From: Nitrosopumilus sp.
Lineage (GTDB): Archaea; Thermoproteota; Nitrososphaeria; Nitrososphaerales; Nitrosopumilaceae
Length of the DNA: 64,000 nt
Direction: 5' to 3'
Assembly (NCBI GenBank): GCA_965218695.1
Contig: OZ244651.1
Location: 2,112,001-2,176,000, forward strand
This document shows, one piece after another, positions 35,394 through 45,888 of the stretch. Numbering within the stretch: the first letter of the stretch is position 1; each line of letters opens with the position of its first letter. A program made the position numbers and the translations under genes. The notes under the pieces are model-generated. The model was not told the DNA's origin. It worked only from the letters and a program-made list of their open reading frames with translations, and searched no databases.

Positions 35394-36200
35394 GTGAAGG
35401 CAGCAGTAGTCCAGTTCAAGGCATCGACTGACAAGGCAGCCAACCTCAAGAGGATAATCTCGTTTATCTCCAAGGCCGCATCAGACGGTGCCGCGCTGTG
35501 TGCGTTTCCAGAGTTTATGATGTTTTATACTGACTCATCACAGACGCCAGGACAGCTTGCAGCCATGGCCGAGACTGTTGACGGAGACTTTGTAACTGCC
35601 CTCTCAAGGGCTGCCCGGGAGAACCGCATAGACGTAGTAGGATCGTTTTATGAAAAGAGCGCAAGGAGGAACAGGGTGCATGACACGTCTGTCATAATAG
35701 ACAGAACCGGCAGAATCGTCTCTACATACCGCAAGATTCACCTCTATGACGCTCTGGGATTCAAGGAGTCCAGAAAGATGACACCCGGTTCTGAGATTGC
35801 AAGACCTGTAAGGACGTCTGTGGGAAGAACAGGCATGATGATCTGCTACGATCTGAGGTTTCCCGAAATGTCCCGCTGGCTTGCAGCCTCCGGCTCGGAG
35901 GTTATTGTAGCGCCGTCTGCATGGGTTCAGGGGGATATGAAAGAAGAGCACTGGCTCACAATTAACCGGGCGCGTGCAATCGAGAATGGATGCTATGTAA
36001 TCGCACCAGACCAGGTAGGCAACATCTACTGCGGAAGAAGTCTAGTAGTTGATCCGTTTGGCAGAATACTGCTTGACATGGGACAGAGACAGGGCATAGG
36101 ATATGCCGATATTGACATGCAAAACGTGCAGAAGACAAGGAGGATATTGCCACTGCTTAAGAACAGAAGAACCGATGTGTACCGCTCCCCGGACTGCTAG
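35394..36200 (+). CDS. Carbon-nitrogen hydrolase (Nit-like)
   Basis: FPE, YRKIHLYD, ICYDLRFPE triad, RARAIEN. Confidence 0.93.
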   Translation: MKAAVVQFKASTDKAANLKRIISFISKAASDGAALCAFPEFMMFYTDSSQTPGQLAAMAETVDGDFVTALSRAARENRIDVVGSFYEKSARRNRVHDTSVIIDRTGRIVSTYRKIHLYDALGFKESRKMTPGSEIARPVRTSVGRTGMMICYDLRFPEMSRWLAASGSEVIVAPSAWVQGDMKEEHWLTINRARAIENGCYVIAPDQVGNIYCGRSLVVDPFGRILLDMGQRQGIGYADIDMQNVQKTRRILPLLKNRRTDVYRSPDC

Positions 36201-36865
36201 ATTCTGCTGCTGCATACAATGTTTGAGCACTGTCTTGTCCAGCTCTGGATTCTTGTGTACCTGAAGATTATTACCGGCCACCTGCAGACATCGCATCTGT
36301 TCTTTGTTGCCCGGAGCTTTGCCTTCTGCAATAGCGGTGAGGATGCCTTGCATCCGCCGTAAAAGTTCGAACATCCCATGAACCGCTTTCCGGTTGTTCT
36401 TGATCTGATTATCATCAGCTCACCTAGCCCGCATTCGGGACACTGTACAAGTCCCTTCTTTGGAAAGTTTGTCCCTAGAATCATATACTTTTTCTCCCTT
36501 GGGGACCATGACAGGTATCCTGTTGGATCCAGATACTGCTGGATCTCCTTCTTGAAGCCTTCTGTTCCGGTCTTTGTCATCTTTACAGTGTGCCTGGGAA
36601 CAACTCTGGGAGTGGTCCGCACCTTTGGTTTCTTTGTCATGGTACCTGCTCTGGGAGTGGTCCGCACCTTTGGTTTCTTTGTCATGGTACCTGCTCTGGG
36701 AGTGGTCCGCACCTTTGGTTTCTTTGTCATGGTACCTGCTCTGGGAGTGGTCCGCACCTTTGGTTTCTTTGTCATGGTACCTGCTCTGGGAGTGGTCCGC
36801 ACCTTTGGTTTCTTTGTCATGGTACCTGCTCTGGGAGTGGTCCGCACCTTTGGTTTCTTTGTCAT
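36197..36865 (-). CDS. Topoisomerase-I-type zinc-ribbon protein with repeat-expanded basic N-terminus
   Basis: CPECG..L.I.RSR.TGKRFMGCSNF..C, second CxxC..CxxxxC; N-terminus is 6 repeat units. Confidence 0.8.
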   Translation of the reverse strand: MTKKPKVRTTPRAGTMTKKPKVRTTPRAGTMTKKPKVRTTPRAGTMTKKPKVRTTPRAGTMTKKPKVRTTPRAGTMTKKPKVRTTPRVVPRHTVKMTKTGTEGFKKEIQQYLDPTGYLSWSPREKKYMILGTNFPKKGLVQCPECGLGELMIIRSRTTGKRFMGCSNFYGGCKASSPLLQKAKLRATKNRCDVCRWPVIIFRYTRIQSWTRQCSNIVCSSRI

Positions 36866-36871
36866 GGTACC
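36604..36871. repeat. Perfect 45-bp tandem repeat x~6 (MTKKPKVRTTPRAGT)n
   Basis: Unit CTCTGGGAGTGGTCCGCACCTTTGGTTTCTTTGTCATGGTACCTG. Confidence 0.96.
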
Positions 36872-36916
36872 GATACTGCTAAAACGATTTTTATATGGAC
36901 TCCGATCAGTGGCGAT

Positions 36917-38071
36917 GTGGAAAAGGTTTGCGTTCTTGGTGCAGGCAGCACCAAATATGGAAAGCTTAACGACAGCATCGCCGATATTACGACACAGGCA
37001 TCGGCAATGGCAATCGAGGATGCAGGCATTGATCCCAAGGAGGTCAAGGCAGCATACATCTCAAACGTCTTTGGTGTTGCAGACAAGCAGGTGCATCTTG
37101 GCCCGGTTCTGATGAGCAATCTTGGAATCTCGGATAGGCCGTCATTGTCCATCGAGTCTGCCTGCGGAAGCGGCTCTGTCTCATTTAGGGAAGCATACGC
37201 AAACGTTGCAGCCGGCTTTTATGATTGTCTGGTAGTTACCGGGGTGGAGAAGGTGACCCACACTGGAACCGAATGGACCACAACATACTTTTCATATTGT
37301 TCGGACTTTTTTTACGAGGGACAATCAGGTGCATCATTTCCGGGGCTGTTTGCCTCGATGGCACGTGCATACCTGACTGAGTTTGATGCCACTGAAGAGG
37401 ATCTGGCACTGGTCGCAGTAAAGAATCACAAAAATGGCATGCTCAACCCAAAGGCCCACCTGCAAAAAGAGATCACACTTGATGACGTAATGAATTCGCC
37501 GGTGGTTGCAAGCCCGCTTAAGCTTTACGACTGCTGTCCCTTCTCTGACGGGGCTAGTTCTGTAATACTCTGTTCTGAAAAATTTGCAAGGGAGCAGGGA
37601 GGTAGCTACATAGAGGTAATAGGTTCTGGCAGGGGAGGTTCGCCTGCAGCCCTACAGGGCCGGGATCGCCTGACTACAATTCCAAGTACAAAGATCGCAG
37701 CGGAGGCTGCATACAAGATGGCCGGAATAACCCCTGGGGATGTAGATTTTGCAGAGGTACACGACTGTTTTACAATTGCAGAGGTGGTGGACACTGAGGA
37801 TCTGGGGTTCTTTGAGAAGGGCACAGGCTTCCAGGCGGTCCGCGAGGGCAAAACCGACCTGAACTCGGACGTATCGATCAACCCGTCTGGTGGTCTCAAG
37901 TCAAAGGGACATCCGATCGGAGCGACCGGCGTGGGTCAGGTAGTGGAGGTGTATGATCAGCTGACCGGGAGGGCAGGCAAGAGAACCGTCAAGGATGCTA
38001 GAATCGGTCTTACTCACAACTTTGGCGCAACCGGGGCAAGCTGTGCAGTCCATCTGTTCCAAGGAGTATGA
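36917..38071 (+). CDS. Archaeal (SCP2-type) thiolase / acetyl-CoA acetyltransferase
   Basis: ESACGSG, NPKAH, DCCPFSDGA, EVHDCFT, NPSGGLKSKGHPIGATG; GTG start at 36917. Confidence 0.93.
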   Translation: MEKVCVLGAGSTKYGKLNDSIADITTQASAMAIEDAGIDPKEVKAAYISNVFGVADKQVHLGPVLMSNLGISDRPSLSIESACGSGSVSFREAYANVAAGFYDCLVVTGVEKVTHTGTEWTTTYFSYCSDFFYEGQSGASFPGLFASMARAYLTEFDATEEDLALVAVKNHKNGMLNPKAHLQKEITLDDVMNSPVVASPLKLYDCCPFSDGASSVILCSEKFAREQGGSYIEVIGSGRGGSPAALQGRDRLTTIPSTKIAAEAAYKMAGITPGDVDFAEVHDCFTIAEVVDTEDLGFFEKGTGFQAVREGKTDLNSDVSINPSGGLKSKGHPIGATGVGQVVEVYDQLTGRAGKRTVKDARIGLTHNFGATGASCAVHLFQGV

Positions 38072-38072
38072 T

Positions 38073-38438
38073 ATGTCCATAAAGGAGAGTCTTATTGAGA
38101 ACGCAAGACAGGGAAATATCCTTGTCCACAAGTGCACTGCATGTGGCAACCTGCATCTCTCTACTGTCTATTTTTGCCAGGGATGTGGTAGTAAGGACTT
38201 TGAGGATGTCATACTGGCAGGCACCGGCTCTGTTGTTACCTATACGATAATCACCGTGCCCCCTACAGGCTTTGAGGAGTATACCCCGTATGCCTTTGTC
38301 GTGCTTGGGCTGGACGACTCTGATCTGAGAATATCTGGATTCATGGCAGGAATAACGACACCTGCGGATCTTCCGGTAGGGACCAGAGCTAGGGTTGTAG
38401 GTTATGATCAGCGTGGCATTCTGATTGAAAAGCAGTAA
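38073..38438 (+). CDS. DUF35 (zinc-ribbon + OB fold) thiolase partner
   Basis: CTACG..CQGCGS, G.VVTYT, PY; directly after the thiolase. Confidence 0.9.
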   Translation: MSIKESLIENARQGNILVHKCTACGNLHLSTVYFCQGCGSKDFEDVILAGTGSVVTYTIITVPPTGFEEYTPYAFVVLGLDDSDLRISGFMAGITTPADLPVGTRARVVGYDQRGILIEKQ

Positions 38439-38507: not shown

Positions 38508-38669
38508 ATGTCAATAGAGATTACATGTGGCAAGTGCGGAGAACAGATTGTGCGGATGAAGATGCTAAAACCGCTCAAGAATATTCTGAATTCGTCAGGG
38601 GGAAAGTGTCCTTCATGCGGCCAGAAACTCTCCACATCCGAGTTTTCTCTTGACATCCAAGATGCCTGA
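38508..38669 (+). CDS. Small zinc-ribbon protein (53 aa)
   Basis: Hand translation MSIEITCGKCGE...KCPSCGQKL. Confidence 0.75.
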   Translation: MSIEITCGKCGEQIVRMKMLKPLKNILNSSGGKCPSCGQKLSTSEFSLDIQDA

Positions 38670-38749
38670 TACCATTCCCTAAAACCCCTGTATTCTCTGT
38701 CAAAATGAATTGACATTATGTTTATTTACTTTCACATCAAGATACTCTT

Positions 38750-40855
38750 ATGGACGACGACGCCGAACCGAAGCGGAGTGGCATACTCAAATCCACCTCA
38801 AAGCGTGTAAGGATGATCTTCTCTGTCATGGCAAGTCCCAACCGGATCGATATTCTTCGGATTCTTAACTCCAAGGGCCCCCTGACTTACTCTGAACTAA
38901 AGTCGCTTGCCGGGTTCAAATCAAAAAAAGAGAGCGGCAAGTTTGCATACCACCTGAGAAAACTGCTCCGGCAGTCGCTTGTGGCACTCAACAAATCCGA
39001 AAGACGTTACACCATTACCAATCTGGGAAAGCTGGTGCTGAGCTTGGCACGGCAGATCGAGGAGAGATCCATCATTGAGAGCGGAAAGATGTACGTCAGG
39101 ACATCACACAACTCGTTTGAGGAGTTTAATCCCTACAAGATAGTCCAGTCGCTGGTTCGCGAGGGGAACCTTCCACTGGAATTGGCTCAGAAGATTACCG
39201 AGGAAGTGGAGAACCGCATCTACAAGTATCAGACCACCTACCTTACAGGCTCGCTTATCCGAGAGCTGGTCAACTCCGTCCTGCTTGAGCACGGCCATGA
39301 GGAGTACCGGGGCAGGCTTGCGCGCATGGGCATACCGCTTTACGACATAAATGAAATGATCTCCAATCTGGAGGGAATGAACAACGGCGTAGAGGATCTC
39401 CAGTTTGCCATAAGCCAGAAGGTTCTTGCCGAGCAGCTTATCTCCAGCACACTGCCCAAGGATCTGGCAGACTCGCATCTGTCTGGCGATCTGCACATTA
39501 CCAATCCCGGAGCCTGGTCGCTGATTCCTGACATCGTCTTTGTCAACATCAAGGAGATCTTTGAGGACGGAGTAAACCTTGGCGGCAAGTATCTTGATGT
39601 GTCTAGGGTTCCATCATCCAGACAACTCGGCGATCTTGCAATCTCGCTTTCAATCATGATATCCCTTCTCTCAAAGGAGGCGTCCCGAGAAGTAGTACTT
39701 GACGGATTGGTCGCGCTGTTTGCCAGTCACATCTCCGCCCCAGATCTAGAACAGAACATTACCAATGCGTTTGTGGCTGCATCCCCCACATCAAAACATA
39801 ATGACCCAGGCACTGTAGTCTCAGTCAGACTTCAGCTGGGCTCTGACCCAGAGACGACTGCTGCCATAATCGGTGCATACAAGAACTATACAAGGATTAC
39901 ACCGACTCCAAAGATAGGTCTCATAATTGACTATGGCAAGGAGACAGTTTCCGGCATCTCCGGTCAGATATCTGAGATAATACTGCTCGGGGGACGGGTC
40001 AGTTTTATCAATGGACACATGTCAAGCTCCGGACTGGCCACCGGCTCCAAAAGGAACCACGGACCGGTATCAGTAGCACTCCAGTCTATCTCGATTAATC
40101 TTCCAAGGCTTGCATTCGAATCAAACAAGGATGAGACCTACTTTCGGGCAAGACTTGCGCTGCTGATGAAGCCGGCTCTTGCGGCAATGGCGCTAAGAAA
40201 GAAGGGCATTCTGGATCTTACCCGGAAGGGACTCCACCCAATTCTTGCACAGAACATCCAGTTTATGCAGAGGAATTCCGTGTCCCTGATCATAAATCTG
40301 GTCGGACTCAAGGAGGCAGTATTTGGTATTCTGGGACACAAAAACGACAAGGAAGGCCGTGAGATCCTTCAAAAGGTAATTACGACTGCAGTAGATGTGG
40401 GCAACAAGAGCGGCAAGGATCTGGGCGATCCAGTCTTTGTATGCATGATTGATACTGACAGCTCGGCGCGTTTTGCAGGGATGGATGGCGAAAAATACGG
40501 CAAGAATTCAGTCATTGGCACCCCAGAGGATAACTCCTACTCCCAAGGAGTGACAATCAATGCATCTGAAATCCACCAGTACACCAGCAGAAGCGAGCCG
40601 GTATCCGAATCCAACAGGTTCTCAAGATTCCTCAATGGGGGCGTGTCCATTACACTGCAGATTGACAGGGATGCCGGGTACGAGGCAGTCAAGGATTCCA
40701 TAGAGAAGATGTCAGAGCTTGTCTCTCACTTTCGGCCCGTCAAGGACATCGTAATGTGCAACGAATGTGGCTTTAAGGATGAGCCGTTTGAGGACAGGTG
40801 TCCAAGATGCAATTCCCGTTACACCACCTTAAACCAGAATGATTTCGGAGATTGA
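38750..40855 (+). CDS. ArsR-like wHTH + ATP-cone + degenerate class III RNR (NrdD-like) fusion
   Basis: ASPNRIDILRIL..LTYSEL..FAYHLRKL; VRTS..EEFNPYKI..LIRELVNSVL; HLSGDLHI, SINLPRLA, C-terminal CxxC..CxxC; no glycyl-radical motif. Confidence 0.82.
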   Translation: MDDDAEPKRSGILKSTSKRVRMIFSVMASPNRIDILRILNSKGPLTYSELKSLAGFKSKKESGKFAYHLRKLLRQSLVALNKSERRYTITNLGKLVLSLARQIEERSIIESGKMYVRTSHNSFEEFNPYKIVQSLVREGNLPLELAQKITEEVENRIYKYQTTYLTGSLIRELVNSVLLEHGHEEYRGRLARMGIPLYDINEMISNLEGMNNGVEDLQFAISQKVLAEQLISSTLPKDLADSHLSGDLHITNPGAWSLIPDIVFVNIKEIFEDGVNLGGKYLDVSRVPSSRQLGDLAISLSIMISLLSKEASREVVLDGLVALFASHISAPDLEQNITNAFVAASPTSKHNDPGTVVSVRLQLGSDPETTAAIIGAYKNYTRITPTPKIGLIIDYGKETVSGISGQISEIILLGGRVSFINGHMSSSGLATGSKRNHGPVSVALQSISINLPRLAFESNKDETYFRARLALLMKPALAAMALRKKGILDLTRKGLHPILAQNIQFMQRNSVSLIINLVGLKEAVFGILGHKNDKEGREILQKVITTAVDVGNKSGKDLGDPVFVCMIDTDSSARFAGMDGEKYGKNSVIGTPEDNSYSQGVTINASEIHQYTSRSEPVSESNRFSRFLNGGVSITLQIDRDAGYEAVKDSIEKMSELVSHFRPVKDIVMCNECGFKDEPFEDRCPRCNSRYTTLNQNDFGD

Positions 40856-40896
40856 AGCATCATTATAATTGGATTGTTATGAGTTTAGTGATAGTA

Positions 40897-40939
40897 TTAC
40901 CACCTATATGGTATCCGCCATCTACTATATTTGGTAGAT
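40897..40939. promoter_or_regulatory. Two adjacent imperfect palindromes, candidate operator
   Basis: TTACCA-CCTATA-TGGTAT (40897-40914) and ATCTAC-TATATTTG-GTAGAT (40920-40939). Confidence 0.4.
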
Positions 40940-41228
40940 AGATTTACATATAAACCTAATATATAATTATACCCAATTCTTATATTATTTTTTGTACTGA
41001 TACGATAAAAATTGGATCGGTGCATCTAGAACCAATAATACCCCAAATTCGTGCCTAGATCCAGCCCACTGCCCTGACTGTGCCTTGACTAGGTTCGTTA
41101 AAGTGAGCAGTATATATCTGTGTCCAATAAGTACTCATATGCGAATTCATCTTTTTCTTAACTTGGTGTGTTATGCATTAGAATCAAAAATTTATAACCA
41201 TATAGATCCAAGGACTTGTGATGTTTCG

Positions 41229-43880
41229 ATGAATAATTCTCAGATAGAAAATTCTATATCCCAAATCACGAAGCGAAGCGGAGCCGTTACTGTGTTCAAT
41301 AAGAACAAGATCTCAAATGCCATATACAAGGCACTGGATGCCACCTCCAAGGCCGATCGCAGTCTGGCCGATCAGCTTGCAGACCGGGTTGTAGCCAAGC
41401 TGGCCGAACAGGGATTTACAAAGTCCCATACCCCAACAGTGGAGCACATTCAGGACATTGTCGAGATGACACTGATTGACCACGGTCACAGTGACATAGC
41501 CAAGGCGTATATCGTATACAGACATGAGAGAAGAAAGCTCCGGGAGGAGAAGATGAAGGTTCTGAATCTGCGTGCGCTTGATCCGGTCTCAAAGAAGTTT
41601 GATCTGAACTGTCTGAGGGTGCTTGCATCAAGGTACCTGATGAGAAACGACAGGAATGAGATTATCGAGTCCCCTACACAGATGTTTGAAAGGGTTGCAA
41701 TAGTGGTGGCAATAGGGGATCTCATGTATGACTCTGCCATATTTGACAGGGCAGGGGGCCATGTTCAGAACACGGACGAGGCAGCGTCATACCTTCAAAA
41801 ACTGAACTCGTTTGACTACAAGTTCAAGATAGGGCAGTACTACCTCAACAAGTATCACTTTAGATCACTGATCAACCTGTATGTGGAACTTGGCAGACGG
41901 GAGCAGATGAGGATCAGTTTCAAGGCCTTGTTGATGTTGCTGGTAGGCAAGAAGCTTGACAAGTACGCCGACCGTGTTACAGAATATTTTGAGCTTATGA
42001 CATCACAGGACTTTCTACCAAACTCGCCTACGATGATGAATGCAGGAGGGAGGCTTGGACAGCTGTCTGCATGCTTTGTTCTGGGAATGGATGACGGCAT
42101 GGAGGAGATCATGAAGTCTACATCGGATGCGGCACTAATCTTCAAGTCTGGAGGTGGTGTCGGAATCAACTATTCAAATCTGCGAGAAGAAGGCGATATA
42201 GTGGCCTCTACTTCGGGAGTCGCATCAGGCCCTGTCTCATTTATGAATATAATCAATACTGTGACTGAGGTAGTCAAACAGGGAGGGAAGAGACGTGGGG
42301 CCAACATGGGCATCATAGAGTCGTGGCACCCTGATGTCGAAAAATTCATCACCAACAAGACCGAACCCGGGGTGCTGGAGAATTTTAATATTAGCGTTGG
42401 AATATGGGAGGATTTTTGGGATGCGCTGGTAAATACAAAGGACGGTAACTATGTCCTGCGCAGTCCTCGTGACAAGACCCCTGTCAAGGAGATAAACGCA
42501 CACCAGCTGACTGACCTGATTGCGCTGTCTGCATGGAAGAGTGCAGAGCCCGGACTCATATTCTTTGATCAAATCAACAAGTACAACGTATTTGCAAAGG
42601 CCCGGAAGGCCCCCCTGAGGGCAACCAATCCGTGCGGCGAGCAGAGTCTTTATCCGTACGAGTCATGCAATCTGGGATCCATCAACTTGGCAAACTTAGT
42701 CAACAGGCAGGCAGACGGATCCTACAAGTTTGACTGGCAGCGGTACGAGGAGATGATCAGAAAGACGACAAGATTCCTTGACAATATAATAGATGTCAAC
42801 AACTACCCAATTGAAGAGATCAGTAAGGCGTCAATAGAGTCTAGAAGAATAGGGCTTGGCGTAATGGGGGTGGCCGATCTTTTGTACAAGCTCCGCATTC
42901 CGTACAACTCCGAGGATGGCTACCGGATGCAGGCAAGGCTCTCTGAGGCCCTGACATACTATTCCATGGAGGAGAGTGTTGCACTTGCACGATCCCGTGG
43001 CGAGTTTCCGCTGTGTTCAAAGACAGAATACCCTGACGGAAAGATCCCCGTTGCCGGATACTATGAGAAGCCAAAGGAGCAGCACTCGTATGAGTGGGAT
43101 GCCCTGATTGAGAAGATCAAGACACACGGCATCCGAAACGTCCTGACTACCACCGTGGCGCCCACAGGAACCCTCTCCATGATTGCAGACTGTTCCAACG
43201 GAATGGAGCCTGCCTTTGCGCTGGTCTTTGAAAAAAGGGTCACCGTTGGAAGATTCTTTTACACAAACAAGGTAGTCCAGGATGCACTCAAGGAGGCCGG
43301 GCTTTACAATGACCAGATTCTTGCCAAGATCGCAGACAACTACGGTTCCCTGAAGGGAATTCCAGAGATTCCTCAGTGGATGCAGGATACGTTCGTGACT
43401 GCCATGGACATACACTGGACTGATCATCTTATGGCACAGGGTGTATGGCAGGACTGGATTGGAAATGCCATTGCCAAGACCATAAACATGCCGTATGATG
43501 TAACTGCTGAAGATGTAAAATCCGCATACCTGCTGGCCCATGAAATGGGTCTCAAGGGAATCACAGTATACAGGGACGGCTCCAGACACACGCAGGTACT
43601 TCACATGACAAGCCAGAATGCAGAGAAGACATTCGAGGTCAGGCCCAGCCGGTTTGTTACCGAGTTTATAGAATCCAACATTACAAACCCGTACGTCAGA
43701 TCCCATGCGATTGCAGCACTTGCGCTAAAGCCCCATGACAGTGAGATCAAGACCGAATCCCAAAAACCTGAGAATATACCCGAGGATCAACTGTGTCCCA
43801 CATGCAAGAATCGTCTTGCCTTCATGGAAGGTTGCAGCATCTGTATTGAATGTGGACACAGTGGCTGCACACCCGGATGA
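41229..43880 (+). CDS. nrdJ: Adenosylcobalamin-dependent (class II) ribonucleotide reductase with ATP-cone
   Basis: ITKRSG ATP-cone, PNSPT, QLSACFV, TNPCGEQ, CNLGSINL, VAPTGT, KGITVYRDGSR, C-terminal Cys cluster. Confidence 0.95.
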   Translation: MNNSQIENSISQITKRSGAVTVFNKNKISNAIYKALDATSKADRSLADQLADRVVAKLAEQGFTKSHTPTVEHIQDIVEMTLIDHGHSDIAKAYIVYRHERRKLREEKMKVLNLRALDPVSKKFDLNCLRVLASRYLMRNDRNEIIESPTQMFERVAIVVAIGDLMYDSAIFDRAGGHVQNTDEAASYLQKLNSFDYKFKIGQYYLNKYHFRSLINLYVELGRREQMRISFKALLMLLVGKKLDKYADRVTEYFELMTSQDFLPNSPTMMNAGGRLGQLSACFVLGMDDGMEEIMKSTSDAALIFKSGGGVGINYSNLREEGDIVASTSGVASGPVSFMNIINTVTEVVKQGGKRRGANMGIIESWHPDVEKFITNKTEPGVLENFNISVGIWEDFWDALVNTKDGNYVLRSPRDKTPVKEINAHQLTDLIALSAWKSAEPGLIFFDQINKYNVFAKARKAPLRATNPCGEQSLYPYESCNLGSINLANLVNRQADGSYKFDWQRYEEMIRKTTRFLDNIIDVNNYPIEEISKASIESRRIGLGVMGVADLLYKLRIPYNSEDGYRMQARLSEALTYYSMEESVALARSRGEFPLCSKTEYPDGKIPVAGYYEKPKEQHSYEWDALIEKIKTHGIRNVLTTTVAPTGTLSMIADCSNGMEPAFALVFEKRVTVGRFFYTNKVVQDALKEAGLYNDQILAKIADNYGSLKGIPEIPQWMQDTFVTAMDIHWTDHLMAQGVWQDWIGNAIAKTINMPYDVTAEDVKSAYLLAHEMGLKGITVYRDGSRHTQVLHMTSQNAEKTFEVRPSRFVTEFIESNITNPYVRSHAIAALALKPHDSEIKTESQKPENIPEDQLCPTCKNRLAFMEGCSICIECGHSGCTPG

Positions 43881-44362: not shown

Positions 44363-45888
44363 GTAAGTGTTCACGTGGTTTAACTCATTTTTAGGCGTAT
44401 TTTGCAATCTCCGCCAAGTAATCCAATTTCTTGTTTTTCCATGTCATTACACATGAAAAGAAATTCGCCATCCACGTCATCGTCTCCTCTGCCCTTATGC
44501 TGCCCCGTATTTTTCTGTGCACGACTATCTCGCGCAACCCGCGTTCTGCAGCATTGTTTGTAGGCGGGATCTTTGGGTTCAGCACGAACCGGAACAGGTC
44601 GCTGCCAGCATTGCTGATCTTGACCATGAATTTTTCCAATATTGGATCGTCGGCGTACCTTGCAACGATCTTTTCGATGCATGACGTCAGCATGGCAGAC
44701 GCGTTGTCCCGGAGAGAGCGCGAGCGTTTCCTGCTTGCCCTTCTGGCATAATCATAGATTATGCGCAGGTGCTTCAGGACGTTGCGCGCGCCTGGGCAGT
44801 CCGGATTGCGGTTGCAGATGTCCCTGGCCTCGCGTATTATGTGCGACCAGCAGCGCTGGACGCGGTATTTTCCGTACGCCGTCCAGCCGTCGCACACTAA
44901 CGTGCCGTCCCAACCCCCAAGCGCTTCTTTCAGAACCTTTGCCCCCCGGCTGTCCCGTATCACGTACAGCGCGTGCCCGGTCAGCGGATCGTGCAGTATC
45001 CACACCCAGACGTTGCGGCCGTTTAGGTGAATCGATGTCTCGTCGGCGTGCAGTATCTTGGCCTTGCGTATCATGGCGGCAATGGCTGCCGCAGGGGCGC
45101 CCAGCGACGTTCCCAGCCTGCGCATTATGTTGTGCGCCGTGCCCGAGGAGAGTGTAATTCCGTACCGCGACATGCGGTCTGCGATCATCCTAAACGGCAT
45201 GCGACACACGTAATCGTCTGCAACATCAGTCGTTATGCTCGGATCGTAGCTGCCCTTGTCTGGAAGGCCGGTCTCGGGCTTGATGTCCACCAGACCGCAG
45301 GAGCAGCGACACGTGTTTATGGTGTGGCGCGTGGTGATGACCTTTATCGTGCGCTCCACCTTGGTAATGTCGCGTTTTTCTGACTGCACTATGGAAAGGC
45401 TACCCGAGCCGCATTCGGGGCAGGCCTCCGGGGTGTGTTCCTCAAACTCGGTGGGTTTTGGCTTGCGGGTGCGGCCCATGTGGCCTTTTTGCCCCCCGCG
45501 CGACTTCCCGCTGCCGGCCGCATCCACGCGGTCCTTTTGATCCCGGGAGGCTTTTGTGGATTTATTGTAGGCATTCTTTTCGTCGCCTTTTCCCTTTGTG
45601 TCAGGCCATCCGGGCCCCCTTTTTTGTGATGACGGGGTGTTGTAATTGTCATGCCGCACCAGCCTGCGCTTAAGATCAGCAACTGCCAGATTCAATTCCT
45701 CAATTATCTGCCCTTGCATCTCAATCGTCTGCTTGAGCTTGATGTTCTCAGTCTTGAGATCCGTGTACATCTTTTTGAGTTCAGCCTGGCTTTTCACATC
45801 GGGTTTGGATTACCATCCTATTTGGATCTGTGGTTTGCACAAAATTTACCCAAGAGTGAACTGAATTAGGCACGACGTGAACACTTAC
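44363..45888 (-). mobile_element. IS66-family single-ORF element, copy B (1526 bp)
   Basis: Near-identical to 26273-27798; TSD AAGATTTG at 44355-44362 and 45889-45896. Confidence 0.95.
44391..45797 (-). CDS. IS66 transposase
   Basis: One amino-acid difference (R/K) from the 26301-27707 product. Confidence 0.95.
   Translation of the reverse strand: MKSQAELKKMYTDLKTENIKLKQTIEMQGQIIEELNLAVADLKRRLVRHDNYNTPSSQKRGPGWPDTKGKGDEKNAYNKSTKASRDQKDRVDAAGSGKSRGGQKGHMGRTRKPKPTEFEEHTPEACPECGSGSLSIVQSEKRDITKVERTIKVITTRHTINTCRCSCGLVDIKPETGLPDKGSYDPSITTDVADDYVCRMPFRMIADRMSRYGITLSSGTAHNIMRRLGTSLGAPAAAIAAMIRKAKILHADETSIHLNGRNVWVWILHDPLTGHALYVIRDSRGAKVLKEALGGWDGTLVCDGWTAYGKYRVQRCWSHIIREARDICNRNPDCPGARNVLKHLRIIYDYARRASRKRSRSLRDNASAMLTSCIEKIVARYADDPILEKFMVKISNAGSDLFRFVLNPKIPPTNNAAERGLREIVVHRKIRGSIRAEETMTWMANFFSCVMTWKNKKLDYLAEIAKYA

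Follow-up and report, generated by a model that had tools for sequence, protein, structure and literature searches.

A predicted catalytically inactive relative of class III ribonucleotide reductase with winged-helix and ATP-cone domains, a candidate regulator of nucleotide-synthesis genes in Archaea

Background

NrdR is the bacterial master regulator of ribonucleotide reductase (RNR) genes. To our knowledge, the transcriptional control of DNA-precursor synthesis in Archaea is essentially unknown. A mechanism of nucleotide-controlled oligomerisation is described for NrdR in the available parts of PMC9110341 and PMC12176259. Among the RNRs themselves, the class III enzyme NrdD carries its thiyl-radical cysteine on the finger loop in an MGCR or MCCR motif (PMC9669993) and has HxHD as the motif for the substrate triphosphate (PMC11226230, PMC4493059); we drew the NrdD motif definitions used below from the available parts of these three papers. 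In the present study, we analysed a gene for a protein of 701 amino acid residues in a 64,000-nucleotide stretch of DNA from Nitrosopumilus sp. (assembly GCA_965218695.1, contig OZ244651.1, positions 2,112,001 to 2,176,000; hereafter, the window). The protein consists of a winged helix-turn-helix (wHTH), an ATP-cone, and a body derived from NrdD, and its gene lies directly upstream of nrdJ, which encodes a class II RNR.

We found that the protein is homologous to NrdD over most of its length, that its sequence has lost the residues needed for ribonucleotide reduction, and that it belongs to a large archaeal family whose members are often encoded beside RNR or pyrimidine genes. On balance, the protein is probably a dimeric, ATP/dATP-sensing transcription factor for nucleotide-synthesis genes, similar in its role to NrdR. 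A preliminary description of the locus, made from the sequence of the window, knew of no earlier characterisation of such a protein, and we found none in the literature; nor did we find a description of a winged-helix-fused or catalytically dead NrdD there, including in the available parts of the RNR phylogeny papers PMC3019208, PMC9531940, and PMC9669993, although subscription journals and supplements were outside this survey and an earlier passing mention is possible.

Domain composition and homology to NrdD

The translation contains the landmarks HLSGDLHI (residues 243-250), SINLPRLA (448-455), and ARFAGMDGEKYG (near 572-583), followed by two CxxC pairs (670-673 and 684-687). The order of wHTH, ATP-cone, and NrdD-like body given in the preliminary description was confirmed by the translation, Pfam, hhalign, and Foldseek. 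In Pfam, the matches were HTH_20 at residues 27-79 (32.6 bits against a cut-off of 27, E = 8e-8), DUF7347 at residues 23-97 (40.7 bits against 27.6, E = 2.8e-10), the ATP-cone PF03477 at residues 114-186 (34.5 bits against 25.8; 38.4 bits in the genome search), and a weak but significant match to NRDD (73.8 bits against 26.2). The domain scored too low for the metalloregulator subfamily (NCBIfam HTH_metalloreg NF033788, 23.5 bits against a cut-off of 55). Orthologs at 69-97% identity have the same four Pfam domains, and one ortholog from a cultured strain is the Nitrosopumilus adriaticus protein named NADRNF5_0252 in its source. The closest relatives, 85% and about 72% identical, are from metagenome-assembled genomes and isolates of Nitrosopumilus or Nitrosarchaeum, as judged by their titles, and place the window in the Nitrosopumilaceae. 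In the ATP-cone, VRTS is found in place of the canonical KRDG hairpin, and R117, Y186, R187, and R192 are conserved (hhalign and family alignment).

The relationship to NrdD required profiles to be seen. A single-sequence phmmer search against solved structures reached only E = 0.17 with the NrdD of T. maritima. A profile built from 102 family members aligned with canonical NrdD from the ATP-cone through the Zn ribbon (hhalign; probability 100, E = 7.2e-61, 621 columns, 13% identity), and all of the solved NrdD chains were matched by the family profile with E-values from 1e-40 to 2e-30 (HMMER). The AlphaFold model of the protein (pLDDT 91.1, pTM 0.83) found as its best matches in the PDB the class III RNRs of S. 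thermophilus, T. maritima, P. copri, and phage T4 (Foldseek; E = 2.6e-21 and below), with TM-scores, normalised to the target, of up to 0.65; class I enzymes were far behind. The likeness is far beyond chance, and the 701-residue protein is a true homolog of NrdD. The Zn site is also kept, as C670, C673, C684, and C687 align with C644, C647, C662, and C665 of the E. coli enzyme, and the NLPR motif is retained, with Asn in 100 of the 102 family sequences.

Residues 203-701 were predicted to form a homodimer, which scored 0.83, whereas no control of the three scored above 0.00. For comparison, 20 of 30 proteins whose solved structures are pairs of one chain attained the mark used for this score, as did 1 of 23 with single-chain structures. 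At least 82% of the contacts agreed between prediction runs, and the pLDDT of the partner was at least 83. The predicted interface consists of helices 293-310 and 339-354, the counterparts by alignment of those through which NrdD dimerises and which make up its specificity site. This prediction may reflect likeness to solved NrdD dimers rather than provide independent proof of dimerisation. The residues that read the effector in the T. maritima enzyme, Gln161, Gln218, and Gln210 (available parts of PMC4493059), map to columns of the family alignment that are gapped or lack conservation, a mapping that is untrustworthy at 13% identity.

Loss of the catalytic residues and of the activase

We mapped the NrdD residues by two independent alignments, hhalign and HMMER. 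The finger-loop motif MGCR/MCCR corresponds to S427-G428-L429-A430 in the HMMER alignment, and C384 of E. coli falls in a gap in the hhalign alignment. The cysteine of strand beta-A (C175 in E. coli, C125 in T. maritima) is replaced by Ile262, in a column occupied in the family by T (33), E (15), and S (14). The HxHD motif reads H249-I-T-N252, and the column of its second His holds S (24), P (14), and N (10) in the family. The QTPF/Y motif of loop 2 is lost, this stretch being gapped and non-conserved in the family alignment. The whole protein contains five cysteines (565, 670, 673, 684, and 687) and none in residues 1-564. As the preliminary description had noted, no cysteine occupies an active-site position of NrdD, and the chain stops 14 residues past Cys687 with neither a glycyl-radical domain nor an RxxGY motif. 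The tails of close orthologs differ in sequence and end equally early. The protein scores 68.3 bits with the NrdD equivalog model TIGR02487 of NCBIfam, the cut-off of which is 326.35.

The missing NrdG activase, first noted for the window, is missing more widely. The genome of the source organism (2.63 Mb, 99.99% complete by marker genes) gave no profile match to NrdG at the cut-off, the best being TIGR02495 with 41.5 bits against 131, and none of the 61 sampled genomes of its taxonomic family contained NrdG2 above the cut-off. The 701-residue gene is the sole NRDD match in its own genome. Since the catalytic cysteines, the HxHD motif, loop 2, and the glycyl-radical domain are missing and no NrdG was found, the protein, judged from its sequence, cannot be an RNR.

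The best radical-SAM candidate for a hidden activase was rejected: QueE scored higher, and the candidate was below all of the NrdG cut-offs, including TIGR02491 and TIGR02826. For this QueE-like open reading frame (ORF), every model, QueE included, was below its cut-off.

It is highly improbable that the protein is still an enzyme, either for a chemistry other than ribonucleotide reduction or as an RNR with unrecognised radical residues. In favour of such a reading, the protein preserves the barrel fold, the NLPR motif, and the Zn ribbon, and the NrdD of T. maritima, which once seemed to lack a positioned cysteine, is active; however, according to the available parts of PMC4493059, from which both points are taken, that NrdD does have an SCCR motif and Gly621. 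The target has no cysteine beyond position 565 and the Zn ribbon and has no glycyl-radical domain, triphosphate motif, or activase, and the body is its least conserved part, as shown below.

Extent of the family and sequence constraint

In a library of representatives at 50% identity, 1153 relatives were found at E ≤ 0.001 and 161 at E ≤ 1e-30. A family match was present in 221 of the 301 sampled genomes of the phylum, in 97 of the 121 of the class, and in every sampled genome of the organism's own taxonomic family (43/43 and 54/54), across which identity was 58-85%. Clusters of look-alikes with the same three Pfam domains were found in the ESM Atlas, most commonly from Nitrososphaerota, Bathyarchaeota, Promethearchaeota, Thermoproteota, and Nanobdellota. 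The expectation that the protein occurs throughout the lineage under an 'anaerobic RNR' label was borne out, as orthologs are named 'anaerobic ribonucleoside-triphosphate reductase', 'helix-turn-helix domain-containing protein', or 'ATP-cone domain-containing protein' in the sources. The first of these names credits strictly aerobic ammonia oxidisers with an anaerobic reductase and can mislead metabolic inferences about life without oxygen; the proposed role would correct this widespread misannotation.

In a FastTree phylogeny, one branch with a support of 100 separated the 102 family members from 13 canonical NrdDs, a small sample, in a tree with the root assumed on E. coli; this topology is consistent with a single origin of the family. 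The RxxG[YF] motif was found in 2 of the 102 members and a Cys in the finger-loop motif column in 2, and no member had both. A Cys is found elsewhere in the wider finger-loop region in 42 of the 102, so that the loss concerns the motif position only and not the whole loop. The Zn ribbon is kept in 76 members and missing in 26, and a tail of at least 25 residues after the Zn site is kept in a further 33 of the 102. From these alignments, nearly all of this large archaeal family appears equally dead catalytically. One long relative, P0266 (1206 residues), ends in the canonical glycyl-radical motif SRITGYY and matches the query from residue 84 onward; this protein could be a genuine NrdD extended by additional N-terminal domains.

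The distribution of sequence constraint along the protein is uneven. Identity to the target among close, middle, and distant relatives was 94%, 74%, and 34% in the winged helix; 83%, 65%, and 47% in the ATP-cone; and 51-61%, 28-37%, and 15-25% in the barrel body. Of 59 positions conserved in at least 80% of the 102 members, 41 are within residues 32-199. The best-conserved part is therefore the winged helix among close orthologs and the ATP-cone across the whole family. This pattern is the reverse of that of an enzyme and suggests that the functional core consists of the DNA-binding and nucleotide-binding modules. The preliminary description went further and proposed sensing of (deoxy)nucleoside triphosphates at several sites. 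For the old active site, this idea is unsupported, given the H-I-T-N sequence at HxHD and the loss of loop 2 and of both catalytic cysteines; of the candidate sites, the ATP-cone alone is clearly under strong constraint.

We also considered a decaying relic of an ancestral anaerobic RNR, i.e., a pseudogene in progress with no present function, a reading suggested by the lost catalytic residues and the truncated C-terminus. We rejected it: the frame is intact, the gene is universal in the sampled genomes of its taxonomic family, identity across that family is 58-85%, the model is of high confidence, and the N-terminal domains are under very strong constraint, all of which contradicts decay.

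Gene neighbourhoods across Archaea

As proposed in the preliminary description, we surveyed the loci of orthologs for nrdJ. Of the 80 close loci, 77 have nrdJ immediately downstream in the same orientation; among the other three, two had no room downstream, and in one nrdJ was about 5 kb upstream on the opposite strand. Among 20 deeper loci of the class, 8 had a class II RNR gene as a neighbour (3 co-directional, 4 convergent, and 1 divergent). In 40 loci of other families of the phylum, an RNR gene followed on the same strand in 7 (6 class III nrdD, two of the six with a glutaredoxin gene in between, and 1 class II); in L124 (7733-8059) and L135 (9552-9857), a small glutaredoxin-like gene lies between the family member and a canonical nrdD, with all three genes on the same strand. 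A gene for PyrB, PyrI, or a small protein of the amino-acid-kinase family was found within 4 kb in 18 of the 40, and an RNR or pyr neighbour in 23; the small kinase is presumed to be UMP kinase. The neighbours in these 40 loci were called with Pfam for 20 and with a BLAST panel for all. Over the 60 distant loci, represented by the best-matching paralog of each genome (many genomes hold 2-4 paralogs), the neighbours included an RNR gene in 15, a pyrB, pyrI, or UMP-kinase-like gene in 21, and either kind in 32.

We then compared the distribution of NrdR. The NrdR model TIGR00244 matched 16 of the 301 sampled genomes of the phylum, all belonging to one taxonomic family, f12 (16/16), where the NrdR gene is directly beside a canonical nrdD, as in Bacteria (e.g., G148:C2:113579-116100). 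The three members of the 701-residue protein's family examined in f12 (L134, L137, and L158) adjoin pyrB and not an RNR gene. Outside f12, a member of the family holds the position upstream of the RNR gene. The model did not match the genome of the source organism, in which ATP-cones were found only in the two RNRs and in the 701-residue protein.

The interpretation in the preliminary description is partly supported. The dead class III scaffold joined to a winged helix and an ATP-cone, its link to nrdJ, the lack of NrdG, and the 'anaerobic RNR' label on an uncharacterised protein held up in every computational test applied. The interpretation is the best available, and comparative genomics strengthens it, because links to RNR and pyrimidine genes span distant archaeal families and NrdR is scarce, although the function itself rests on inference. 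The same neighbourhoods bear on two other explanations. In the first, the protein would be a DNA-binding regulator that senses adenine nucleotides and has a broad regulon (DNA replication, the cell cycle, or general nucleotide metabolism, pyrimidine synthesis included), its adjacency to nrdJ being largely inherited gene order. This alternative deserves attention but is unlikely. Pyrimidine neighbours, including the amino-acid kinases, are indeed commoner than RNR neighbours among the 60 distant loci; a pair of thiolase and OB-fold genes is kept beside the gene even in distant families, so that some of the synteny is plain inheritance; and the second RNR gene of the source genome has no neighbour of this family. 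However, inheritance by itself hardly accounts for an adjacency to RNR genes that is seen repeatedly, for either RNR class and in three orientations, and the position upstream of the RNR gene is that of NrdR in the sole family having NrdR.

In the second explanation, which we consider improbable, the protein would be a nucleotide-binding pseudo-subunit that acts on proteins, modulating or chaperoning RNR or other enzymes, and its winged helix would serve for protein contacts or for tethering to the nucleoid. Winged helices are able to mediate protein contacts. The dimer interface of NrdD is kept in the model, and heterotypic contacts with NrdD are conceivable in anaerobes in which the two genes are adjacent. 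The ammonia oxidisers, however, have no NrdD partner, as seen from the sole NRDD match in the source genome; the winged helix passes the cut-off for DNA-binding families (HTH_20 and ArsR) and is the part best conserved among close orthologs; and the family is also linked to pyr genes, whose products have no fold in common with it.

nrdJ and the upstream regions

The preliminary description reported a complete class II RNR gene next to the 701-residue gene in the same orientation, and this was correct: TIGR02504 gave 716 bits against a cut-off of 400, PF02867 was matched over positions 1-523 of 523, and the ATP-cone of NrdJ gave 81 bits. In 77 related loci, the homology begins at residues 46-49 of the listed nrdJ ORF, and the true start is probably Met49 of that ORF, at position 41229 of the window. 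A start at this position leaves an intergenic region of 373 bp.

In 72 relatives, the region of about 200 bp upstream of nrdJ has in common a palindrome, TATGAAgTTCATA, and three (C/T)GATCA boxes at a spacing of about 20 bp; neither the boxes nor the palindrome is recognisable upstream of nrdJ in the window. The best-conserved blocks of the upstream region are 90-190 bp 5' of the presumed TATA box of nrdJ. In the promoter region of the 701-residue gene, the AT-rich sequence TTTATTTAC, assigned by eye as TATA-like, lies just 3' of the inverted repeat at 38698-38715.

Contigs from two metatranscriptome runs, both of one study, share about 90% identity with the window and extend over the 701-residue gene (38765-40821) and nrdJ (41187-43871). 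They derive from a relative and account for little of the stretch, and being found in an RNA library is not proof of transcription. No RNA contig covers positions 40976-41159 between the genes, a gap that cannot be read as separate transcripts.

The genome has a second gene for an RNR large subunit outside the window (G000:C1:624500-627900; loci L183, L184, and L186), with a frame of 1242 residues and an ATP-cone of its own. Pfam matches its barrel in two segments separated by about 950 bases, a split suggestive of an intein or a large insertion.

Proposed function

We propose that the protein descends from a class III RNR as a catalytically dead offshoot and now acts as a one-component transcription factor. 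The NrdD-derived body would hold it as a homodimer, as in NrdD, and the homodimer would offer two N-terminal winged helices to DNA. Binding of ATP or dATP by the ATP-cone would alter the arrangement or the oligomeric state, so that DNA binding would be set by the ratio of dATP to ATP. In the ammonia-oxidising Archaea, the main target would be the adjacent nrdJ, probably together with the regulator's own gene; in other Archaea, paralogs would serve nrdD, nrdJ, or the pyrB, pyrI, and UMP-kinase genes. Functionally, the protein would then be the archaeal counterpart of bacterial NrdR.

Several points weigh against this proposal. What the analysis shows is the domain composition, the loss of the catalytic residues, the pattern of conservation, the spread of the family, and its gene neighbours; binding to DNA and to nucleotides, the target sites, and the sign of the regulation are inferred. 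The ATP-cone is divergent, with T118-S119 at the K-R pair of the hairpin and R117 one position earlier, which leaves nucleotide binding plausible rather than certain. We could not define an operator: the two upstream regions of the window share two 8-mers and no word of 9 bases or more; among the 72 relatives, the best non-trivial words common to the nrdJ and regulator upstream sets contain GATC and are present in just 36-56% of the regulator upstream regions; and the conserved blocks upstream of nrdJ could instead be the terminator of the regulator gene. With regard to synteny, the adjacency in 77 of 80 close loci, which are kin and not independent, counts for barely more than a single observation. 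Of the 60 distant loci, 28 have no RNR or pyr gene nearby (6 of the 28 being cut by a contig end), and many of the pyrB neighbours are convergent, which speaks for linkage and not for co-regulation. The neighbour frequencies are far above random placement by reasoning from one to three RNRs and one pyrB among about 1500-2500 genes, and not by a computed expectation.

A wider scheme can be put forward tentatively, as a possibility that we would not yet call probable. In this scheme, a duplicated NrdD gained a winged helix, lost its radical chemistry, and kept the ATP-cone and perhaps the specificity site for deoxynucleoside triphosphates (dNTPs) at the dimer interface, and would thereby read both the dATP/ATP ratio and the dNTP balance. 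Its descendants would be an archaea-wide family of RNR-derived transcription factors standing in for NrdR, with the 701-residue protein as its founding example and with paralogs specialised to nrdD and nrdJ or to pyrBI and pyrH in Nitrososphaerota, Bathyarchaeia, other Thermoproteota, and Asgard archaea. If true, the family would fill the regulatory gap left by the scarcity of NrdR in the phylum, and its members would be the first instance in which the catalytic subunit of an RNR was reused as a transcription factor.

Other features of the locus

The coordinates of the features are shown in Table 1. The thiolase gene and the gene for an OB-fold/Zn-ribbon protein that follows it precede the regulator gene, and this pair is also beside family members in distant lineages (L141, L142, L162, L180, and L181); the pairing is a conserved gene order unrelated to nucleotides. 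The small ORF directly 5' of the regulator gene is conserved as coding sequence in an alignment of 81 related upstream regions, and its family matches are all sub-threshold. Further upstream, the ORF of 222 residues begins with six tandem copies of the 15-residue unit MTKKPKVRTTPRAGT and ends in a topoisomerase-type C4 zinc finger that scores 29.6, below the Pfam cut-off of 32. The transposase gene is located about 500 bp downstream of nrdJ.

Table 1. Positions in the window of the 701-residue gene, its domains, nrdJ, and surrounding features
Feature	Position	Strand	Basis
ORF of 222 residues with tandem repeats	36197..36865	-	
Thiolase gene, then OB-fold/Zn-ribbon (ChsH2/DUF35-type) gene	36863..38438	+	
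ORF of 53 residues with two CxxC pairs (small Zn-ribbon protein)	38508..38670	+	
Promoter region of the regulator gene, with inverted repeat TGTCAA-N6-TTGACA at 38698-38715	38671..38749		Sequence
Gene for the 701-residue protein (wHTH, ATP-cone, and NrdD-like body predicted to be dead)	38750..40855	+	Intact ORF; Pfam domains
Winged helix-turn-helix, ArsR/HTH_20 type, DUF7347 (residues 23-97)	38816..39040	+	Pfam
ATP-cone (residues 114-186)	39089..39307	+	Pfam
NrdD-derived alpha/beta-barrel body (about residues 200-660), without catalytic residues	39347..40729	+	hhalign, Foldseek
C-terminal Zn ribbon (Cys670/673/684/687)	40757..40810	+	Cysteines aligned to E. coli NrdD
Candidate regulatory region upstream of nrdJ, with inverted repeat ATCTAC-N8-GTAGAT at 40920-40939	40856..41228		Sequence
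nrdJ, class II (B12-dependent) RNR with its own ATP-cone and a C-terminal Cys-rich tail (probable start)	41229..43880	+	TIGR02504, PF02867
IS66-family transposase gene	44391..45797	-	PF03050 (E = 6e-40)

Comparison with known systems

The N-terminal domain resembles the ArsR/SmtB proteins in that it matches HTH_20 above the cut-off and the ArsR metalloregulator model weakly; the latter score is below its cut-off, and the effector part of the protein is entirely different. In its general design, the protein resembles the enzyme-derived one-component regulators, such as MocR/GabR, in which a wHTH is joined to an aminotransferase fold, and the ROK repressors, in which it is joined to a sugar-kinase fold. 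In each case, the partner of the winged helix is a one-time enzyme that acts, or in our protein would act, as a dimerising, ligand-sensing module. Here, however, the scaffold is a radical enzyme, RNR, and the likely sensor is the separate ATP-cone and not the old active site.

With NrdD, the protein shares homology over the ATP-cone and the whole barrel, the same fold, the Zn ribbon, the NLPR motif, and a predicted dimer formed through the same helices. It differs from NrdD in the absence of the thiyl cysteine, the beta-A cysteine, HxHD, loop 2, the glycyl-radical domain, and an activase in the genome, in its N-terminal winged helix, and in a score far under the NCBIfam equivalog cut-off.

No NrdR-box-like operator was identified for the 701-residue protein, which is about five times larger than NrdR, with a 500-residue body derived from NrdD, and has a winged helix where NrdR has an N-terminal Zn ribbon; there is no homology outside the ATP-cone. 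Nevertheless, both proteins combine an ATP-cone, as the presumed sensor of ATP and dATP, with a DNA-binding domain, both are encoded beside RNR genes, and their distributions in the phylum look complementary, with NrdR in 16 and the family of the 701-residue protein in 221 of the 301 genomes.

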